A stretch of 9,216 nt of DNA from a virus (IMGVR_UViG_641736222_000030:1-9216), one strand, 5' to 3'; shown: positions 1 to 9,216, numbered from the stretch's first letter. Made by a program: numbers and translations. The notes: a model not told the origin generated them from the letters alone.

Positions 1-1239
1 ATGAGCAGGGCAATTCATAGACTTAGCGACACTCTTTTACGAAAATTAAGCGGATCACCAACCACAAAAAGCACCTTTTTTAATGATGGTGGCAACCTTA
101 GCGTAAGGCATTCAACCAATGGCCTGTTAACCTGGTATTTCACTTACAGGGCTGGAACTGGTAGGCAGATATCACCGGAACGTCTGAGGCTGGGCAATTA
201 TCCCGATCTGAGCCTGAAAGCTGCCAGGGAAAAAGCGGCACAGTGTCGCGCCTGGCTGGCTGAGGGGAAAAATCCGCGCTATGAACTTAATCATGCTGTA
301 CAGGACGCGTTAGCCCCCGTGACGGTTAAGGAAGCGCTCACTTACTGGCTTGAATCGTACGCAAAGGAAAAGCGCACTGACTACGAATCACTGAAAAGCC
401 GGATCAATAAACACATAATTAGCCAGATTGGCGCTATGCCACTGGAAAAATGCGAGCTACGCCACTGGCTGGCCTGTTTTGACCAGCTTGCTAAGCGTAA
501 TCCGGTATCAGCCGGATTTTTGCTACAGGTATGCAAACAGGCGCTTAAGTACTGCCGAAAACGACGATACGCAATCAGCAACGTTCTTGATGATATGGTT
601 GTCGGTGATGTTGGGAAAAAAGCAGAAATAAGCGAGCGCGTACTAACAAACAAGGAGCTTGGGGAATTACTACGCGCCCTGGATGAAAAAATTTACCCAC
701 CGTACTACAGCGCCCTGATTCGCCTCCTGATTGTCTTCGGATGCCGTACCACTGAGCTAAGACGCTCTGAGGTCCAGGAATGGGATTTTAAAGAAATGCT
801 CTGGACCGTGCCGAAAGAACACAGCAAAACGAAGGTAGCAATATTCAGGCCAATACCGGAAGCGATCTTGCCGTTTGTCATGAAGCTGGTGGAGCAGAAC
901 AGGCACACGGGATTATTGCTCGGAGAACTGAAAGGGCAATCATCCGTATCAGAGTACGGAAGAACGGCACACAGACGCATTAATCAAGCCCCATGGACGT
1001 TGCACGACATCCGGCACACGTTTACAACGATGCTGAACGATTTAGGCGTTGATCCTCATGTAGTGGAGCAGCTAACCGCGCACCAGTTGCCAGGAATGCA
1101 ACGAGTCTATAATCACTCCCGTTATCTTGATGCAAAACGTGACGCTCTTAATCTATGGGGTGAGCGTCTCGAGCTTCTCCAGAACAATGATGAAAAAATC
1201 GTTGTTATGACCTCGCGAATTTACTCCCAAAATTCTTGA
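1..1239 (+). CDS. int: site-specific tyrosine recombinase, P4-type phage integrase (412 aa)
   Basis: Complete ORF. N-terminus (DGGNLSVRHSTNGLLTWYFTYRAGTGRQ) resembles the arm-DNA-binding domain of P4-family integrases; C-terminal catalytic domain has box I Arg (FGCRTTELRR), HxxR (LHDIRHTFTT) and a Tyr region (VYNHSRYLD). Confidence 0.93.
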   Translation: MSRAIHRLSDTLLRKLSGSPTTKSTFFNDGGNLSVRHSTNGLLTWYFTYRAGTGRQISPERLRLGNYPDLSLKAAREKAAQCRAWLAEGKNPRYELNHAVQDALAPVTVKEALTYWLESYAKEKRTDYESLKSRINKHIISQIGAMPLEKCELRHWLACFDQLAKRNPVSAGFLLQVCKQALKYCRKRRYAISNVLDDMVVGDVGKKAEISERVLTNKELGELLRALDEKIYPPYYSALIRLLIVFGCRTTELRRSEVQEWDFKEMLWTVPKEHSKTKVAIFRPIPEAILPFVMKLVEQNRHTGLLLGELKGQSSVSEYGRTAHRRINQAPWTLHDIRHTFTTMLNDLGVDPHVVEQLTAHQLPGMQRVYNHSRYLDAKRDALNLWGERLELLQNNDEKIVVMTSRIYSQNS

Positions 1240-1649: not shown

Positions 1650-1859
1650 ATGCGTGAAATAAATGAAGATCGTGTAATCCGCGAAAAAGAATGCAGAGAG
1701 CTAACAGGCGTTTGCCGCACAACTCGTTACGAGATGGAAAAGCAGGGCCGCTTCCCCTCACGTATCAGTCTTGGCGGTCGTTCTGTTGGCTGGGTTAAGT
1801 CTGAGGTTATGGAATGGGTTAAAAGCCGGGATCGTATTAATTCAGGTAAGGCAGCGTAG
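1650..1859 (+). CDS. alpA: AlpA-family (phage-type MerR-like HTH) transcriptional regulator, 69 aa
   Basis: Translation MREINEDRVIREKECRELTGVCRTTRYEMEKQGRFPSRISLGGRSVGWVKSEVMEWVKSR matches the AlpA pattern (TG-x-SR-x-T-x-Y, FP-x-x-LG-x-RSV-x-W, SEV-x-x-W). ATG at 1650 chosen over the ORF-track GTG at 1563 because AlpA proteins are about 70 aa; the ribosome-binding site is weak (AGG about 8 nt upstream). Confidence 0.85.
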   Translation: MREINEDRVIREKECRELTGVCRTTRYEMEKQGRFPSRISLGGRSVGWVKSEVMEWVKSRDRINSGKAA

Positions 1860-1872
1860 GGGGAACATATGA

Positions 1873-1905
1873 CACATAAAACAAAGGCGACCTGTGGCGG
1901 TCGCC
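1873..1905 (-). terminator. hairpin GGCGACC-N6-GGTCGCC followed on the minus strand by TTTGTTTTAT; putative intrinsic terminator for the divergent RHH gene
   Basis: 7-bp stem 1886-1892 / 1899-1905. The T-tract exists only on the minus strand (plus 1874-1885 acataaaacaaa). Sits about 90 nt past the RHH stop on that strand. Confidence 0.4.
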
Positions 1906-1993
1906 AATGGGAAAACACTCAACATAAGCCCGAACATCATAGCGATTTGCTGTCTGGTGGGCAATGTGCTCAGTGTGCTGGCTTGCTGGTGGA

Positions 1994-2173
1994 CTATTCC
2001 TGCTCTTTGGCCTTGCGGCGCTGGCGGCGTTTGATTTCGCCTTTAACGGCAGTAACTATAAATTGCGCTTTGCTTTCACCTTCATCTAAATTTTTTTCTA
2101 AGTCTGCAACAACATCATGCGGGAATCTGGCATTTAACTGTTGCGACTTATTATTTGTTGAACCTGTTGCCAT
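1994..2173 (-). CDS. ribbon-helix-helix (CopG/Arc/MetJ-like) DNA-binding protein, 59 aa
   Basis: Minus-strand ORF MATGSTNNKSQQLNARFPHDVVADLEKNLDEGESKAQFIVTAVKGEIKRRQRRKAKEQE: N-terminal beta-strand (QQLNARFPHDVV), helix, then G-E-S-K helix N-cap, and a basic tail. Start at the internal ATG (plus 2171-2173) with RBS AGAGAGGA 7 nt upstream. The competing + strand reading here is Cys/Trp-rich and not protein-like. Confidence 0.6.
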   Translation of the reverse strand: MATGSTNNKSQQLNARFPHDVVADLEKNLDEGESKAQFIVTAVKGEIKRRQRRKAKEQE

Positions 2174-2189
2174 TACTGAATCCTCTCTA

Positions 2190-2290
2190 AGTTGGTGCGA
2201 TTCAGTATACACAAAAAAAATTCAGAGAAAAGGCTTGAAGTGCGATTCACTTGCTGATAGGTTAAAAACAGATGGTGCGATGCACCAAAT
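2190..2290. promoter_or_regulatory. divergent promoter/operator region with three direct repeats of GTGCGATTCA
   Basis: GTGCGATTCA at 2195-2204 and 2240-2249, plus GTGCGATGCA (one mismatch) at 2275-2284. Minus-strand -10-like TATACT (plus 2204-2209) overlaps repeat 1; plus-strand TTGAAG-17 bp-TAGGTT (2235-2263) has repeat 2 in its spacer. Confidence 0.4.
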
Positions 2291-2363
2291 AACAACGCCC
2301 CGCAGTGGTGGCACACATGCAGGGCGTCTAACAACCAACGATAGCAACAGTATCGAGGTAGCT

Positions 2364-2570
2364 ATGAGAAATCATACCACACACCCGCAAGGGCGGGACT
2401 CGCACAACCTGAATAAATACATCTGGCGTTTTATCGCCCTGAGCACGGCACAACCGCGCGTGATTACCATTGAGGCCACCAGCGAACAGGAAGCACGCCA
2501 GCAATCTCCGGCTGGCTGCGTGATGGTATTCGCTGCCCGTATTCGTCAGGGGGAAACCTATGCACAATAA
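2364..2570 (+). CDS. hypothetical small protein, 68 aa (first gene of coupled cassette)
   Basis: C-terminal 68 codons of ORF 1869-2570, beginning MRNHTTHPQGRDSHNLNKYIWRFIALSTAQ. ATG at 2364 preceded by GAGG; an alternative ATG at 2280 has a poorer RBS. Stop overlaps the next gene's start. No family recognised with confidence. Confidence 0.5.
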   Translation: MRNHTTHPQGRDSHNLNKYIWRFIALSTAQPRVITIEATSEQEARQQSPAGCVMVFAARIRQGETYAQ

Positions 2571-2784
2571 AACCACACCGGACGCAACCGCCGCCGCACT
2601 CACTACACTGATGCACGCGCTGATTGATATTTCTGTTATTGCTGACAGGGCGCATAAACACGCAGCCAGAGAATCAGAATGCATCTTCCATTATTTAGCA
2701 TTTGTGCAGCTAAAAGCCGATCAGGCACTGGATAAGGCCGGAAAAATTATCATGGCTGATGTGCAGGAGGTGCACCATGCATAA
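2560..2784 (+). CDS. hypothetical small protein, 74 aa
   Basis: ORF beginning MHNKTTPDATAAALTTLMHALIDISVIADR. RBS GGGGGA upstream; 11-nt overlap with preceding gene and 8-nt overlap (ATGCATAA) with the following gene. Confidence 0.6.
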   Translation: MHNKTTPDATAAALTTLMHALIDISVIADRAHKHAARESECIFHYLAFVQLKADQALDKAGKIIMADVQEVHHA

Positions 2785-3142
2785 CCTGTCAATTTCTGAC
2801 CTTAACAGCATTCAGTTTGACGAGAAATTTACCGGGCAGTTGCTGGTCAATGTGGAGAACGGGCGCATAGTGCGTAATTATCACCTGCCGGATGGTGCAA
2901 TTGCCGGAAGCGTTGAAGCATTGCTGGAACTGGCGGAACGTGCGCGACTGATTAAGCCGTCAACGAGCCATCACGATGATGATCTGCATTTTACCGGATG
3001 TATGGTGAGTCACTACGAAAACGGCGTCGAGGTATCCTGCGAACGGCTGCGTGATGATTGCTGTTTCGGCACACTGCCGGAATTTATCGAGTTGCTGACC
3101 AGTTGCGGTTATCATGTCATTCAGGGGGGTAAACATGCGTGA
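2777..3142 (+). CDS. hypothetical protein, 121 aa, Cys/His-rich C-terminal half
   Basis: Start at ATG 2777 with consensus RBS AGGAGG (the ORF-track start 2759 has none). C-terminal 50 aa carry Cys75, Cys88, Cys95, Cys96, Cys110 and several His, suggesting metal binding. No family recognised. Confidence 0.65.
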   Translation: MHNLSISDLNSIQFDEKFTGQLLVNVENGRIVRNYHLPDGAIAGSVEALLELAERARLIKPSTSHHDDDLHFTGCMVSHYENGVEVSCERLRDDCCFGTLPEFIELLTSCGYHVIQGGKHA

Positions 3143-3599: not shown

Positions 3600-3899
3600 A
3601 TGAAACTTAAATATTCTGGCTTAACTGCCAGTGGCAACACTCACCCTAAATTTACGCGCGGTGATATTTACCGCGACCAGTACGGCGGCACGGTAATGAT
3701 TAAGGGCGTGGAAGAACGGCGCGTAACCTACCGCCGTGAAGGTTACGAATATGATTGCGTGATGCCTGTTTATCAGTTCCGGCGTGATTTTTCTCTGGTA
3801 CAGACCGCGCCGCATAACGTGCCCACCAGCAACGCCAGGGCACGGGCAAACATCCAGAAGCTGAAAACCATGATTAACGGATTCAGGGGTAAAAAATGA
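3600..3899 (+). CDS. hypothetical protein, 99 aa, coupled to replication gene
   Basis: RBS GGAGA 9 nt upstream; stop overlaps the primase start as ATGA (3896-3899). Basic protein beginning MKLKYSGLTASGNTHPKFTRGDIYRDQYGG. Confidence 0.6.
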   Translation: MKLKYSGLTASGNTHPKFTRGDIYRDQYGGTVMIKGVEERRVTYRREGYEYDCVMPVYQFRRDFSLVQTAPHNVPTSNARARANIQKLKTMINGFRGKK

Positions 3900-5650
3900 A
3901 ACTGGCACCGAACGTAAAACAGCAGTCACGCGGCATAAAACACAAAGAAACAGAAGTCATTATTTTTGCGGGTAGTGATGCCTGGGCACACGCGAAACAA
4001 TGGCAGGAACATGATGCGCGTATGGCCGGAGATAATGAGCCTCCTGTGTGGCTTGGGGAGCAGCAGTTATCAGAACTGGATAAGCTGCAAATTGTGCCGG
4101 AAGGCAGAAAATCCGTGCGCATATTCAGGGCCGGATATCTTGCGCCAGTAATGATAAAGGCGATTGGCCAGAAGCTGGCGGCGGCAGGCGTACAGGATGC
4201 AAATTTTTACCCTGATGGTATGCACGGTCAGAAGGTGGAGAACTGGCGCGAATATCTGGCCCGTGAGCGCCAGAATCTTTCTGATGGTCTGGTCATTGAG
4301 CTTCCGGTAAAGCAAAAGGCGCAACTTTCGCAGATGGCGGACAGTGAGCGCGCGCAGCTGCTTGCCGATCGCTTTGATGGCGTTTGCGTACATCCTGAAA
4401 GTGAAATCGTTCACGTATGGCGTGGCGGGGTATGGTGTCCGGTCAGCACAATGGAACTGAGCCGCGAAATGGTGGCGATCTATTCAGAGCACAGGGCCAC
4501 TTTCAGCAAGCGCGTAATCAATAACGCCGTGGAAGCGTTAAAAGTTATTGCCGAACCAATGGGCGAGCCGTCCGGCGATTTGCTGCCGTTCGCCAATGGT
4601 GCGCTTGACCTGAAAACGGGGGAATTTTCCCCGCACACGCCGGAGAACTGGATCACCACGCACAACGGCATTGAGTACACGCCACCAGCACCAGGGGAGA
4701 ACATCCGCGATAACGCGCCAAACTTTCATAAATGGCTTGAGCACGCAGCCCGAAAAGACCCGCGCAAGATGATGCGTATATGTGCCGCGCTGTACATGAT
4801 TATGGCGAACCGGTACGACTGGCAGATGTTTATTGAGGCCAGCGGAGACGGCGGGAGCGGTAAAAGTACATTCACACACATAGCCAGCCTTCTGGCAGGG
4901 AAACAGAACACGGTAAGCGCTGAAATGACATCGCTTGATGATGCTGGTGGACGTGCGCAGGTTGTCGGGAGTCGTCTTATCGTCCTGGCAGACCAGCCGA
5001 AATATACAGGCGAAGGAACGGGCATCAAGAAAATCACGGGCGGCGACCCCGTGGAAATAAACCCGAAATATGAAAAGCGTTTCACGGCGGTAATCAGGGC
5101 GGTGGTGCTGGCGACCAATAATAACCCGATGATATTCACCGAACGGGCCGGAGGTGTGGCACGTCGTCGCGTGATTTTCCGTTTCGACAATATTGTTAGT
5201 GAGGCCGAAAAAGACAGGGAACTACCGGAAAAAATTGCGGCTGAAATCCCCGTCATTATCCGCCGCTTGCTGGCGAACTTTACCGACCCTGAAAAGGCGA
5301 GGGCTTTACTACTGGAACAGCGTGACGGTGATGAAGCACTGGCAATAAAGCAACAGACGGATCCGGTTATTGAGTTTTGCCAGTTCCTGAATTTTCTGGA
5401 GGAAGCGCGCGGCCTGATGATGGGTGGCGGTGGTGATTCAGTGAAGTACACGACCAGGAACAGCCTTTACCGCGTCTATCTGGCGTTTATGGCATACGCA
5501 GGCAGGAGCAAACCGCTAAACGTGGCTGAGTTCAGCAAGGCCATGAAGCCAGCGGCGAAAGTTTACGGGCATGAATATATTACGCGAAAAGTTAAGGGAG
5601 TAACGCAGACCAACGCAATTACAACAGACGATTGCGACGCGTTTTTATAA
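3896..5650 (+). CDS. replication protein: P4-family primase C-terminal (D5_N-like) region plus SF3 helicase, probable C-terminal ori-binding region (584 aa)
   Basis: Motif LPFANGALDLKTGEFSPHTPENWIT (aa 230-255) is typical of the region preceding the helicase in P4-alpha-like proteins. Walker A GDGGSGKST (aa 317-325, nt 4844-4870), Walker B RLIVLADQ (aa 360-367), motif C VLATNNNP (aa 404-411). The N-terminal ~190 aa is not confidently a primase catalytic domain. Confidence 0.92.
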   Translation: MKLAPNVKQQSRGIKHKETEVIIFAGSDAWAHAKQWQEHDARMAGDNEPPVWLGEQQLSELDKLQIVPEGRKSVRIFRAGYLAPVMIKAIGQKLAAAGVQDANFYPDGMHGQKVENWREYLARERQNLSDGLVIELPVKQKAQLSQMADSERAQLLADRFDGVCVHPESEIVHVWRGGVWCPVSTMELSREMVAIYSEHRATFSKRVINNAVEALKVIAEPMGEPSGDLLPFANGALDLKTGEFSPHTPENWITTHNGIEYTPPAPGENIRDNAPNFHKWLEHAARKDPRKMMRICAALYMIMANRYDWQMFIEASGDGGSGKSTFTHIASLLAGKQNTVSAEMTSLDDAGGRAQVVGSRLIVLADQPKYTGEGTGIKKITGGDPVEINPKYEKRFTAVIRAVVLATNNNPMIFTERAGGVARRRVIFRFDNIVSEAEKDRELPEKIAAEIPVIIRRLLANFTDPEKARALLLEQRDGDEALAIKQQTDPVIEFCQFLNFLEEARGLMMGGGGDSVKYTTRNSLYRVYLAFMAYAGRSKPLNVAEFSKAMKPAAKVYGHEYITRKVKGVTQTNAITTDDCDAFL

Positions 5651-5661
5651 TTTTTTGTAAA

Positions 5662-5890
5662 AGCCCTCTACCCCATCTACCCGAATGAAATAAATACATA
5701 TTATTCAACATGATAAGTGGGTAGAGGGCCAGGTAGAAGGCTAATAAAAGCTCTCTACCTCTTCTACCTGATTTTATCAGTTTCAGGTAGCAGGGTAGAC
5801 GGCAGGTAGAGGAGCCCCAAAAGCTATCTACCCGCTGAAAGCCTCGCCATTACTGACATGATGAGCATTCGGGTAGATGGGTAGAGGGGG
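5662..5890. repeat. iteron array: putative origin of replication of the element
   Basis: Eleven exact copies of GGTAGA/TCTACC plus one GGTAGC variant. TCTACC at 5667, 5676, 5754, 5763, 5827; GGTAGA at 5720, 5732, 5794, 5805, 5872, 5880; GGTAGC at 5786. Mostly in pairs 8-12 bp apart. Nested inverted repeats: 5664-5682 vs 5871-5889 (19 bp, one G indel), 5663-5673 vs 5719-5729, 5730-5739 vs 5761-5770. AT-rich segment at 5683-5718. Lies directly 3' of the helicase gene. Confidence 0.55.
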
Positions 5891-5934: not shown

Positions 5935-6249
5935 ATGCGCATACATCAAAATCACTTAACAAACATGCCAGCCGAAAACATGAATCAGGGGCGACAAATG
6001 ACCAAAATTCGCAGAGACAGAACAGAGCCAAAATATAAAGCGTTAGACATGACTGAGCATACCTTAAAGGTGGCAATCAGAACGATAGACCGCCATGCGG
6101 GGGAAGGATACGCGAAAGCACATCCCGACCTGATAAGCGCATTCATGACCACGACGGCGGCAAACTTTGCCACGCTGACAGAACGGGAGATTGCCGAAGC
6201 GGAACAGGTAACAACCATCAACATTAAAACCGGAGAGGTGGAATCATGA
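5935..6249 (+). CDS. hypothetical protein, 104 aa (start uncertain; alternative ATG 5998 gives 83 aa), coupled to ssb
   Basis: ATG 5935 follows GAGGGGG; ATG 5998 follows AGGGG. Stop overlaps the ssb start as ATGA (6246-6249). No family recognised. Confidence 0.5.
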   Translation: MRIHQNHLTNMPAENMNQGRQMTKIRRDRTEPKYKALDMTEHTLKVAIRTIDRHAGEGYAKAHPDLISAFMTTTAANFATLTEREIAEAEQVTTINIKTGEVES

Positions 6250-6668
6250 CAGCACAGATAGCCGCTTACGGGCGGCTGGTGGCTGACCCACAGTTAAAGA
6301 CCACCAGCAAGGGTACACAAATGGCGATGGCGGGTATGGCTATCCCCCTGCCGTGCAGCCAGGCCGATGACGGAACGGCGACGATGTGGTTATCCGTCCT
6401 GGCGTTTGGCAGACAGGCCGACGCACTGGCAAAACACCGCAAAGGCGAGCTGGTGAGCGTGGCGGGTAACATGCAGGTAAGCCAGTGGACAGGCCAGAAC
6501 GGCGAAACGCGGCAGGGCTGGCAGGTTATCGCAGACAGCGTAATCAGTGCGAGAACGGCGCGACCGGGCGGCAAAAAAGGCCAGCAGGGGCAGGCTACTG
6601 ACGCACTGAACAGGGCAAAACAACAGGCGGGGAATGATGATCCGTACGGGGATAACATACCGTTTTAA
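6246..6668 (+). CDS. ssb: single-stranded DNA-binding protein (OB-fold), 140 aa
   Basis: Aligns by eye with E. coli SSB: IAAYGRLVADPQL vs VILVGNLGQDPEV; WLSVLAFGRQADALAKHRKGELVSVAGNMQVSQWTGQNGETRQ vs [44 protein letters not shown]; Gly/Gln-rich linker; C-terminal tip DDPYGDNIPF vs host DDDIPF. Confidence 0.85.
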   Translation: MTAQIAAYGRLVADPQLKTTSKGTQMAMAGMAIPLPCSQADDGTATMWLSVLAFGRQADALAKHRKGELVSVAGNMQVSQWTGQNGETRQGWQVIADSVISARTARPGGKKGQQGQATDALNRAKQQAGNDDPYGDNIPF

Positions 6669-6899: not shown

Positions 6900-6944
6900 G
6901 GCGCAAAAAAAGCGCCCCCGATTGCTGTTACCGGAGGCGCTTTT
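6900..6944 (+). terminator. alternative-hairpin element with weak terminator, upstream of capsid operon
   Basis: GCGCC (6912-6916) can pair with GGCGC at 6900-6904 (7-nt A loop) or with GGCGC at 6936-6940 (extended by 6918-6920 / 6932-6934, 11-nt loop), the latter followed by TTTT (6941-6944). On the minus strand the first hairpin is followed by TATTTTTTT. Confidence 0.3.
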
Positions 6945-7135: not shown

Positions 7136-7330
7136 ATGCCAGAGAACAACACCAGAAAGCCGGATAAAAGTGCCACGGTACACATAGACGCCGGAACTAT
7201 GGAGAAGATCGAACGCTATCAGCAGTTCATCAAAGATAATCACCCGGGTATGCCAGTGCCCACGAAAGGACAAATCACACGCAGCGCGGTTGAATACTGG
7301 TACAGGGCAACGTTAGGAGCCTGGCTATGA
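7136..7330 (+). CDS. small RHH-like protein, 64 aa, coupled to capsid gene
   Basis: Start ATG 7136 with GGAGG RBS 8 nt upstream (the ORF-track start 7103 has none). MPENNTRKPDKSATVHIDAGTMEKIERYQQFIKDNHPGMPVPTKGQITRSAVEYWYRATLGAWL shows a beta-strand (KSATVHID), helix, then G-Q-I-T-R-S helix N-cap. Stop overlaps the capsid start as ATGA (7327-7330). Confidence 0.55.
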   Translation: MPENNTRKPDKSATVHIDAGTMEKIERYQQFIKDNHPGMPVPTKGQITRSAVEYWYRATLGAWL

Positions 7331-9216
7331 AAACATGGTTTTCCATTAAGGCTATGGCAGATGTTGTACATGTGCGCATTTATGACGAGATCGGCGGGTA
7401 CGGTGTAAAGGCATCGGCACTTACTGACGAGATCAACGCGTGCGGTAATGTGTCTGAAATCCATCTTCGCATCCATTCACCTGGTGGCGACATCTTTGAA
7501 GGGCTGGCTATCTATAACGCCCTGAAAAATCATCCGGCAAAGAAAATTGTACACATTGAAGGCATGGCGGCTTCTATGGCCTCGTTTATTGCCATGTGTG
7601 GCGATCACATCGTTATGCCTGAAAACGCGATGATGATGATACATGCCCCCCGTGGTGTTACTGCCGGAGTGTCGGGCGACGTTCGCCGCTTTGCTGACCT
7701 GATGGACAAGCTGGGCGACACGATGGCGGAAACCTACGCCGGAAGAACGGGCAGGAGCAAACAGGAAATCACCGCCATGATGGAGGCGGAAACCTGGATG
7801 GATGGCAATGAGTGTAAGGCTAACGGCTTCGCAGATGAGGTTATAGCCGCGATTACAGCAATGGCCCGAATTGAATCAAAACGAATCGGAGATTTTTCAA
7901 ATATGCCGGAAAAAATTAAAAGCATGATCAGCCAGAAAACTACCAGTGGCGAACAGGAACGACTTAACGGCATCCGTGAATTGTTTGGCACGTTCAACGG
8001 AAGATATAACGACCTGGCTATAAGTTGTCTTGCTGATTCAGAATGTAGCGTTGAGAATGCACGCGAACGCCTTTTACTCGCTATGGGTAAAGAATCAACG
8101 CCAACAAACAAAACCACCCCCGCAAATCTTTACTACGCGTACACGGATAACGGCAACATAACCGGCGATGCAATGCGCCAGGGGCTTAATGCGCGTCTTG
8201 GTCACGAACGGGCCGAACGCGGTAATCCTTACGCCATGATGAGCCTTTTCGATATGGCACAGGCATCATTAACCCATCGTGGTATAAGCACGGGCAGCTA
8301 CGGCACACGCTCGCAGATAGTAAACGCGGCATTCACCCACAGCAGCAGCGATTTTACCGATATTCTTGCTGGTGGCGCTGAAAAATCAGTGCTTGCAGGC
8401 TGGGAGCACAGCGGCGAAACATTCCGCCAGTGGACGAAAAAAGGTTCCCTTTCAAACTTCCGGGAAGCCCGCCGCGTTGGTATGAATGGCTTCTCAACGT
8501 TAAACAAAGTGCCGGAAGGGGCAGAATATAAATACATCACCACCAGCGATCGCGGTGAACCCATCGCGCTGGCTACTTACGGGAATATTTTCAGCATTAC
8601 CCGCCAGGCGATAATCAATGATGACCTTGATCAGTTATCAACGGTGCCAATGGCTATGGGCCGTGCTGCATCAAGAACGGTGGGAAATCTGGTTAATCTG
8701 GTGCTTACAGGCAACGTAAAACTTTCTGACGGAATAGCGCTGTTTGACAAAAAACACAGCAACCTGATTGAAGCAGGACTGACAACACCGGGACTTAGTG
8801 CAGCACGTCACCTGATGCGCACACAGAAGGACAAAAATGGCGAAGTGCTGAATATTGCGCCTAAATTCCTTTTAGTTCCGGCAGCACTGGAAGATCGCGC
8901 GTTGCAGATGATTAACTCAACCGCACCTTTCGGGGCTGATAAAAACAGCGGGATCTTTAACCCGTATCACAAGCTACTTGATATCATCGTCGATCCCCGC
9001 CTTGATGATATCAGCGAAAAACAATGGTACATGCTTTCCGCACAGGGAACGGACACAATCGAGGTGGCTTATCTTGATGGCAATGACGAGCCTTACCTTG
9101 AACAGCAGGAAGGTTTTATCGTTGACGGCGTGGCCTGGAAAGTCCGTATTGATGCAGGTGTGGCAGCTCTGGATTATCGCGGTATGGTCAAATCAGGCGG
9201 GACAGATTCACTCTGA
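7327..9216 (+). CDS. fusion ORF: ClpP-like (S14) prohead serine protease domain, linker, probable HK97-fold major capsid domain (629 aa)
   Basis: N-terminal ~180 aa align with ClpP: IHSPGG vs INSPGG; GMAASMAS vs GQAASMG (Ser83, nt 7573-7575); MMIHAP vs MIHQP (His106). The C-terminal ~330 aa (from about aa 300) have the size and composition of a phage major capsid protein (FSITRQAIINDDLDQL, LLVPAALEDRALQ). No stop codon separates the two parts. Confidence 0.85.
   Translation: MKTWFSIKAMADVVHVRIYDEIGGYGVKASALTDEINACGNVSEIHLRIHSPGGDIFEGLAIYNALKNHPAKKIVHIEGMAASMASFIAMCGDHIVMPENAMMMIHAPRGVTAGVSGDVRRFADLMDKLGDTMAETYAGRTGRSKQEITAMMEAETWMDGNECKANGFADEVIAAITAMARIESKRIGDFSNMPEKIKSMISQKTTSGEQERLNGIRELFGTFNGRYNDLAISCLADSECSVENARERLLLAMGKESTPTNKTTPANLYYAYTDNGNITGDAMRQGLNARLGHERAERGNPYAMMSLFDMAQASLTHRGISTGSYGTRSQIVNAAFTHSSSDFTDILAGGAEKSVLAGWEHSGETFRQWTKKGSLSNFREARRVGMNGFSTLNKVPEGAEYKYITTSDRGEPIALATYGNIFSITRQAIINDDLDQLSTVPMAMGRAASRTVGNLVNLVLTGNVKLSDGIALFDKKHSNLIEAGLTTPGLSAARHLMRTQKDKNGEVLNIAPKFLLVPAALEDRALQMINSTAPFGADKNSGIFNPYHKLLDIIVDPRLDDISEKQWYMLSAQGTDTIEVAYLDGNDEPYLEQQEGFIVDGVAWKVRIDAGVAALDYRGMVKSGGTDSL

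Follow-up and report, generated by a model that had tools for sequence, protein, structure and literature searches.

The window analysed here is a stretch of 9,216 nucleotides of viral DNA (IMGVR_UViG_641736222_000030:1-9216), and its features are collected in Table 1. Judged by its gene content, the window is a capsid-forming PICI (cf-PICI), since an integrase gene (int), alpA, a primase gene and head genes of its own lie together within 9.2 kb. AlpA belongs to a family of activators and excisionases. With positions 1995–3000 as query, 97.8% identity was found to strains of O157:H7 and O111, and over 1994–2380 the E. coli record NZ_AP026099.1 matches the window at 100% identity. Past the part covered by the window, a close relative in E. 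coli goes on to encode portal, head-closure and HNH proteins. The last ORF is a fusion, with a Clp-protease domain at residues 42–174 and a Phage_capsid_4 domain at residues 331–623, unlike the close relative L001, in which the capsid and the HK97-protease are encoded by separate genes.

Table 1. Genes, predicted promoters and candidate regulatory sites in the window
Feature	Position	Strand	Remark
Tyrosine integrase (int)	1–1239		
alpA	1650–1859	+	Pfam PF05930, E 9.8e-18; start taken from annotation of a close relative; convergent with ylcI
Long Eta-like frame	1869–2570	+	Antisense through ylcI, operators and promoters, into the Icd-like domain
Terminator-like hairpin and T-run	1876–1905	-	90 nt past ylcI stop
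ylcI, 59 aa	1994–2173	-	YlcI/YnfO family; predicted Arc/Mnt-like ribbon-helix-helix repressor
ylcI ribosome-binding site, GAGAGGA	2181–2187	-	Read from sequence
O1, GTGCGATTCAG	2195–2205	+	Spans about +1 to -8 of predicted ylcI promoter
ylcI predicted -10, TATACT	2204–2209	-	TATACT in 61/81 relatives; no recognisable -35
Rightward predicted -35, TTGAAG	2235–2240	+	TTGAnn in 80/81 relatives, 64 nt from ylcI CAT
O2, GTGCGATTCAC	2240–2250	+	Begins at final base of -35, occupies spacer
Rightward predicted -10, TAGGTT	2258–2263	+	TAnnnT at 17–18 nt spacer in 79/81 relatives
O3, in palindrome TGGTGCGATGCACCA	2273–2287	+	Core GTGCGATGCAC at 2275–2285
Conserved 5' leader of Icd-like gene	2295–2358	+	Hairpin 1, TCTAACAACCAA, hairpin 2, then GAGG ribosome-binding site
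Icd/Kil-like gene	2364–2570	+	NF033153, 69.8 bits; first gene of rightward operon
Several small ORFs and DUF4222 gene			Between Icd-like gene and primase
D5_N/DUF5906 primase	3896–5650		Pfam
SSB gene	6246–6668		
Clp-protease/capsid fusion ORF	7327–9216	+	Extends beyond window end

Some further elements of the window lie apart from the region around ylcI. The gap between int and alpA holds a repeat-rich stretch at 1283–1314 (TCGTCGAAGTTCGACCAAAGTTCGTCG), with two copies of AAGTTCG and inverted TCGTCG / CGACGA ends, which may serve in regulation or recombination upstream of alpA. Strong hairpins are found on the minus strand at 5662–5743 and 6903–6944, and both gave spurious sub-threshold matches in Rfam (plant microRNA, ctRNA_p42d). 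The former is located directly 3' of the primase gene, the reported location of PICI replication origins, and the latter, which follows the SSB gene at a distance of about 240 nt, combines a GC-rich stem-loop and a T-run.

An earlier note on this DNA had described a 59-aa gene as the only one on the minus strand, and this description was confirmed. The minus-strand ORF as listed runs for 72 amino acids from a GTG at 2212, and the ATG at 2173 gives 59. The shorter form is the right one, because homologues begin with MATGS and because O1 and the -10 element precede the ATG and would fall inside the 72-aa reading from the GTG. In the RefSeq annotation of a close relative, ylcI alone is found on the minus strand of the island. 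Its own ribosome-binding site, the terminator-like hairpin and codon-position entropies of the coding type speak for ylcI being a genuine gene. In 83 loci its start codon, ribosome-binding site and length have been retained, and the CAT-TACTG-GATCTCC context of the start is kept regardless of the operator class described below. The protein scored 63.3 bits (cutoff 30) over residues 9–50 with NCBIfam NF041551 (YlcI/YnfO), a family that also includes YlcI and YnfO from DLP12 and Qin, two cryptic prophages of E. coli K-12. A search of deposited phage genomes with the YlcI sequence yielded no match. In a survey of September 2026, YlcI/YnfO was given only as an accessory 'prophage-associated protein' (PMC13612085).

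The protein had also been assigned to the ribbon-helix-helix class. In an hhalign comparison, a profile of 34 family members was aligned with Arc repressor (sequence checked as PDB 1arq) with an E-value of 2.7e-4 and a probability of 42%. The register places YlcI K9–G32 on Arc K6–N29, with Q12, N14 and R16 on Q9, N11 and R13, which are the base-contacting residues of Arc. YlcI LNARFPHDV thereby pairs with Arc FNLRWPREV, and the two proteins have the strand motif N-x-R-[FW]-P-x-[DE]-V in the same register. The family has a conserved G32-E33-S/T34 turn ahead of helix 2, and the alternating polar strand residues followed by a G-x-S/T/N turn, which are features of ribbon-helix-helix proteins, are both found in YlcI. 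An AF2 monomer of low confidence (pLDDT 66) showed coil at residues 1–18 and helices at 19–27 and 35–58; such a coil would be compatible with a ribbon-helix-helix strand that is formed only in the dimer. YlcI of the window had no match in Pfam and reached no curated ribbon-helix-helix model at threshold, the family members gave only sub-threshold matches to CB_ParB_C and PSK_trans_fac in Pfam, and a sequence search of the PDB was empty. The evidence behind the assignment is consistent but weak, and an Arc/Mnt-like ribbon-helix-helix fold is likely for YlcI.

Upstream of ylcI, the sequence GTGCGATTCA occurs exactly at 2195–2204 and 2240–2249, and a third copy with one mismatch to it (GTGCGATGCA) is found at 2275–2284. 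Of the three 10-bp copies reported previously, two are therefore exact and one is a near copy, and the reported start-to-start spacing of 45 and 35 bp stands. With up to one mismatch, GTGCGATTCA has four matches in the window, of which the fourth lies within int (351–360); shuffled windows contained a mean of 0.70 matches, and none of the 200 shuffles reached four. A 13-mer search of the window allowing up to three mismatches revealed no additional convincing repeat copy.

The placement of the first two copies on promoters, as proposed in the earlier note, was supported by the comparison with relatives. Copy 1 adjoins a minus-strand TATACT, the predicted -10 of ylcI itself, in 61 of 81 relatives, and the other variants of this hexamer (TATAAT, TATAGT and TATATT) retain the minus-strand TAnnnT. 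For ylcI in the window, transcription is predicted to start near 2197 on the minus strand. Copy 2 is flanked by the conserved TTGAnn (80/81) and TAnnnT (79/81) of a predicted rightward promoter, which in the window has a 17-nt spacer and a predicted start near 2270. A generic sigma-70 scan of the window called neither promoter at threshold. The third copy had been thought to overlap an alternative start of the downstream cassette. This had to be given up, as an imperfect copy at about +5 to +15 relative to the predicted rightward transcript start points to an operator and not to a start codon. Two other candidates in this region were rejected. The first is a 9-bp perfect inverted repeat (TACTGAATC / GATTCAGTA, 2174–2182 and 2199–2207), considered as a fourth operator half-site, of which the left arm is made up of the ribosome-binding site and start region of ylcI, conserved and unchanged across operator classes. 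The second is a minus-strand 'terminator' at 2287–2273, which is really the O3 palindrome followed by an A-run beside the -10; as O3 shifts and flips in relatives, it does not represent a conserved terminator.

Related loci are widespread. A blastn search with a 387-bp query that reaches from ylcI across the operators into the first part of the Icd-like gene had matches in 1,581 of 5,426 complete E. coli genomes, and 75 further loci with the pair of ylcI and the Icd-like gene came from other Enterobacterales. The pair is accompanied by differing integrases, AlpA variants and primase types. For comparison, 81 distinct relatives were used, from E. coli, Citrobacter, Klebsiella-group genera, Pectobacterium, Dickeya, Yersinia, Serratia, Proteus, Morganella and Xenorhabdus. 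In about 80 related loci, O1, O2 and O3 are fixed in position relative to the conserved -35 and -10. O1 begins at +24 from the ylcI start codon in nearly all loci, with the -10 hexamer directly after it and an A-rich tract between this hexamer and the rightward TTGAnn (at +64), and the spacing from O1 to O2 is 45 bp, again in nearly all loci. O2 sets in at the final base of the TTGAnn. O3 is found in either orientation, 27–41 nt from the start of the -35, on or just past the -10.

The sites have the form (G)GTG-N5-CA(C)(C) and measure roughly 11–13 bp. The flanks are near-constant, and their GTG and CAC are invariant, as is R16 of YlcI. The 5–6-nt core varies by element, falls into 18 classes and is identical at all three sites within one element. 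Examples of the core are CGATT (window), TATKT, GCTGA, GAATC, GGCCA, GAGCA, GCATT, GTGTT and TAAGA, and GTGGCTGACAC and GTGTATTTCAC are further examples of operators from other classes. The strand QQLNARF together with a CGATT core was found in Escherichia, Citrobacter, Morganella, Proteus, Pectobacterium, Dickeya and Xenorhabdus, despite diverged flanking DNA. The mapping of residues to operators is not strictly one to one, as QKIQARA occurs with GGAATCC in the locus L068 and with GTACTCC in L070, the cores being related, and the strands QKTSVRI and KRFDVRV both occur with GTCCGAC-type sites.

When operator class was compared with the proteins encoded nearby, the association (AMI) was 0.83 for YlcI residues 12 and 14 combined, 0.75 for the seven-residue strand, 0.74 for the rest of YlcI, 0.20 for the Icd-like gene and 0.14 for AlpA, all values exceeding permutation. 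In single columns of YlcI, residues 14 (0.76) and 12 (0.62) were the top two, whereas the equally variable columns 27 and 31 reached just 0.24 and 0.13. Physical linkage accounts for part of the covariation between YlcI and the operators, the distance between ylcI and O1 being 22 bp, but it leaves unexplained why the signal peaks at two alternating residues of the strand. Comparison across loci strongly supports the proposal of an autoregulated divergent repressor acting over its own promoter and that of the cassette and replication operon, as the sites are fixed in about 80 loci and switch their sequence in concert, and as this switch tracks the predicted DNA-reading residues of YlcI and not the neighbouring genes.

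The same data bear on the question of which protein reads the repeats. They could be AlpA sites that activate the rightward operon, with YlcI unconnected to them, as AlpA is required for PICI induction and alpA ends just 135 bp from the ylcI stop. This is very improbable given that the operator class is nearly independent of the AlpA class (AMI 0.14), that L001 and L002 differ in AlpA while their operators and YlcI are the same, and that positions in the -35/-10 spacer and at the -10 or +1 suit a repressor and not an activator. A protein of the rightward operon, Icd-like or Cro-like, might instead read the sites, replacing YlcI or competing with it in the manner of lambda CI and Cro. Bistable switches often pair two proteins on common operators, and Icd-like families are labelled 'transcriptional repressor' in PHROGs (6196 / 1743). 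In P4 (L083, 8168–8584), P4p10 carries the same label, while P4 immunity is conferred by an RNA (PMC10111431), and for this reason the label probably derives from an obsolete annotation of a P4 'cI gene product' CDS. Moreover, a near-identical Icd-like protein occurs with six operator classes (AMI 0.20), and L002 and L003 have downstream proteins in common, among them an identical second gene and DUF4222 gene, with different YlcI and operators. Reading of the sites by an operon protein is accordingly held to be just as improbable as reading by AlpA, and YlcI remains the preferred candidate.

Co-resident islands were also inspected. None of 23 pairs in 11 genomes shared an operator/strand class (expected 2.34, P = 0.085), and Xenorhabdus innexi and X. 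mauleonii have four different classes apiece among their co-resident islands. Avoidance of the same class among co-resident satellites is suggestive only. A related island in E. coli LST200A (L085, 1712–1960) is without ylcI and has at this place an unannotated minus-strand ORF of 43 aa (MRISPELKEQFDKEAQSDGISLANWLKELGRKELLRRGIEPKG) with weak matches to HicB and RHH_5, and a repeat of its own (GTGACCACC) is present twice around a TTGACA -35. The arrangement resembles a small repressor cassette of another kind.

The repeats had been described as intergenic. They do lie between genes, yet they are also contained in the long open plus-strand frame at 1869–2570. This frame starts 10 nt after alpA in the same phase, with just the TAG stop of alpA in between, and in many relatives the long frame opens within about 30 nt of the alpA end. 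The antisense frame across ylcI was open in 79 of 81 genes against 38% expected from synonymous resampling, and the frame in phase with the Icd-like start codon stayed open across the intergenic region, and on through the antisense of ylcI, in 51 of 76 loci, where shuffles predicted 1.6% for the intergenic part. Open-frame lengths were bimodal, with at least 411 nt or at most 138 nt, and ylcI and the plus-strand frame have their wobble positions in common. Because chance would leave the plus frame across ylcI and the repeats open far less often, it might be argued that ylcI is an accidental antisense ORF in an Eta-like plus-strand gene and that the repeats are coding features. We consider this extremely improbable. 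The variability at ylcI codon positions 1, 2 and 3 (codon-position entropies of 0.80, 0.64 and 1.44) fits ylcI, whereas with a plus-strand gene in the dominant role position 2 should vary more than position 1. The start signals and length kept in 83 loci, the match of the protein to a curated NCBIfam family and its resemblance to Arc also argue against an accidental ORF, and the flipping of O3 orientation among loci would be unexpected for a coding repeat. By the pattern of codon-position variability, YlcI is what protein-level selection acts on, and the plus frame is simply kept open.

The leader of the Icd-like gene contains two hairpins, of which the first pairs 2295–2304 with 2318–2327 and the second 2339–2343 with 2351–2355, and TCTAACAACCAA is located at 2327–2338. 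RNAalifold on 24 relatives gave 13 leader pairs, 11 of them with compensatory changes. A TCTAACC-like invariant stretch sits between the hairpins. An immunity RNA in the leader, C4/cI-like or isrK-like after the model of P1 and P4, was considered and rejected at the sensitivity of Rfam: in the window no family was found at E-values up to 10 and no C4 or isrK RNA, three relatives were equally empty, and the P4 positive control was clearly recognised (C4 74.9 bits, isrK 60.8 bits). In P4 (L083), the C4-family immunity RNA lies at 8420–8507.

Despite this difference, the region is laid out like the immunity region of P4, with an alpA/vis homologue, a long frame with an Icd/Kil-like end, small genes and a primase. 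NF033153 also matched the C-terminal part of P4 Eta/Kil, at 73.1 bits. In P4, eta is coupled to vis, contains the cI RNA as well as PLE, an internal promoter, and has Kil as its final part, and its translation from the upstream late promoter prevents termination (PMC10111431). In both elements a promoter lies inside the long frame, and an immunity function, which for the window is predicted, is located between vis/alpA and kil. P4 uses a C4-family RNA and an isrK-like target, whereas the window has a predicted protein repressor gene on the opposite strand and DNA operators. The window further has its own capsid genes, in contrast to sid, psu and delta of P4.

Taken together, it is quite probable that YlcI is an Arc/Mnt-like ribbon-helix-helix repressor with three operators, for which we infer binding, repression and fold from sequence comparisons. 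The repressor reading is supported by where the sites lie, as repressors classically occupy the -35/-10 spacer and also the -10 itself or about +5 to +15. In the resting island, YlcI on O2 and O3 would keep the rightward promoter shut, which is predicted to drive the Icd/Kil-like gene, the cassette of small ORFs and the primase operon, and O1 over the ylcI start region would lead to negative autoregulation. Specificity appears to be determined chiefly by the beta-strand residues 12 and 14, and the GTG and CAC flanks are probably read by R16, which is invariant like them.

The action of YlcI on its own promoter could also be more complex. Like Mnt or lambda CI, YlcI might be a dual regulator, in which case O2 would activate the ylcI promoter while the rightward promoter is repressed, and O1 would mediate autorepression only at high concentration. 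In P22, Mnt represses Pant and activates Pmnt. Such a role would agree with a ylcI promoter that has a conserved -10 and no -35, with an O2 centre at about -48 from the ylcI start and with the 45-bp spacing of O1 and O2 in nearly all loci. The site positions are the sole basis for this proposal, and it would refine the main explanation of YlcI as a repressor and not replace it. We regard dual regulation as rather unlikely.

For Gram-negative PICIs it was reported that the helper phage acts through switching on alpA (PMC6092414), and in EcCICFT073 and EcCIEDL933, AlpA is needed for induction and turns on PICI genes (PMC6092414; 10.1101/2022.09.08.507074). The earlier note had seen in the repressor a switch for a helper phage to flip; the helper phage would do so, if at all, probably indirectly through AlpA-driven transcription. 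Helper-induced, AlpA-driven transcription would read and translate through ylcI and the operators, and this read-through would circumvent the internal promoter in its repressed state and hinder the expression of ylcI. The model was derived from the position of ylcI, antisense in an open frame that begins directly behind alpA, just as vis is followed by eta in P4, and its chances are judged to be even. More tentatively, and with some doubt prevailing, YlcI might be the master repressor of Gram-negative PICIs and cf-PICIs in general, with at least 18 specificity ('immunity') classes, and AlpA read-through might silence ylcI head-on and bypass the promoter. If this were true, co-resident satellites would be under independent regulation via their YlcI operator classes, and the system would be a protein-based counterpart to P4 RNA immunity with a toggle based on convergent transcription.

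Ribbon-helix-helix repressors with promoter-overlapping operators are a well-known kind of system, and the closest parallel is immI of P22. There, too, a small Arc/Mnt-like protein (for the window, a prediction) is encoded divergently from the controlled operon, and short pseudo-symmetric operators lie over the -35/-10 of the operon and over the repressor's own promoter. Sequence similarity is marginal (hhalign probability 42%). The window has one repressor gene and three dispersed sites, whereas P22 has two repressors with one operator each. The P22 operon encodes the Ant antirepressor, and that of the window an Icd/Kil-like protein and replication genes; the rightward operon of the window begins with the Icd-like gene and not with a second ribbon-helix-helix repressor gene (arc), and no Ant or BRO gene was found in it. 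Unlike P22 immI, ylcI of the window is embedded antisense in a long open frame. Similar in logic is Stl/Rpr of SaPIs and Gram-positive PICIs, a divergent repressor of the excision, replication and packaging operon with element-specific variants. The Stl fold is helix-turn-helix and unrelated to YlcI, and Stl is lifted through direct binding of a helper-phage protein, whereas helper-dependent alpA expression is the only known trigger of Gram-negative PICIs (PMC6092414).

In the 2018 description of Gram-negative PICIs, the global repressor was called 'unclear' and control was credited to AlpA. A cf-PICI preprint described the stretch that follows alpA as variable, with no function known. In the literature covered, which was mostly outside subscription journals, no described ribbon-helix-helix repressor of a PICI or satellite was found. 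What appears to be new is the uncharacterised YlcI/YnfO family as a candidate satellite repressor, its many specificity classes and the antisense embedding of its gene in an Eta-like frame. YlcI is thus a concrete candidate for the repressor of Gram-negative PICIs, with defined operators, promoters and specificity residues. The antisense embedding of ylcI offers a clean case of a gene kept within an open and presumably translated-through frame, and the approximately 18 natural pairs of YlcI and operator may serve as a ready-made set of orthogonal small repressors.
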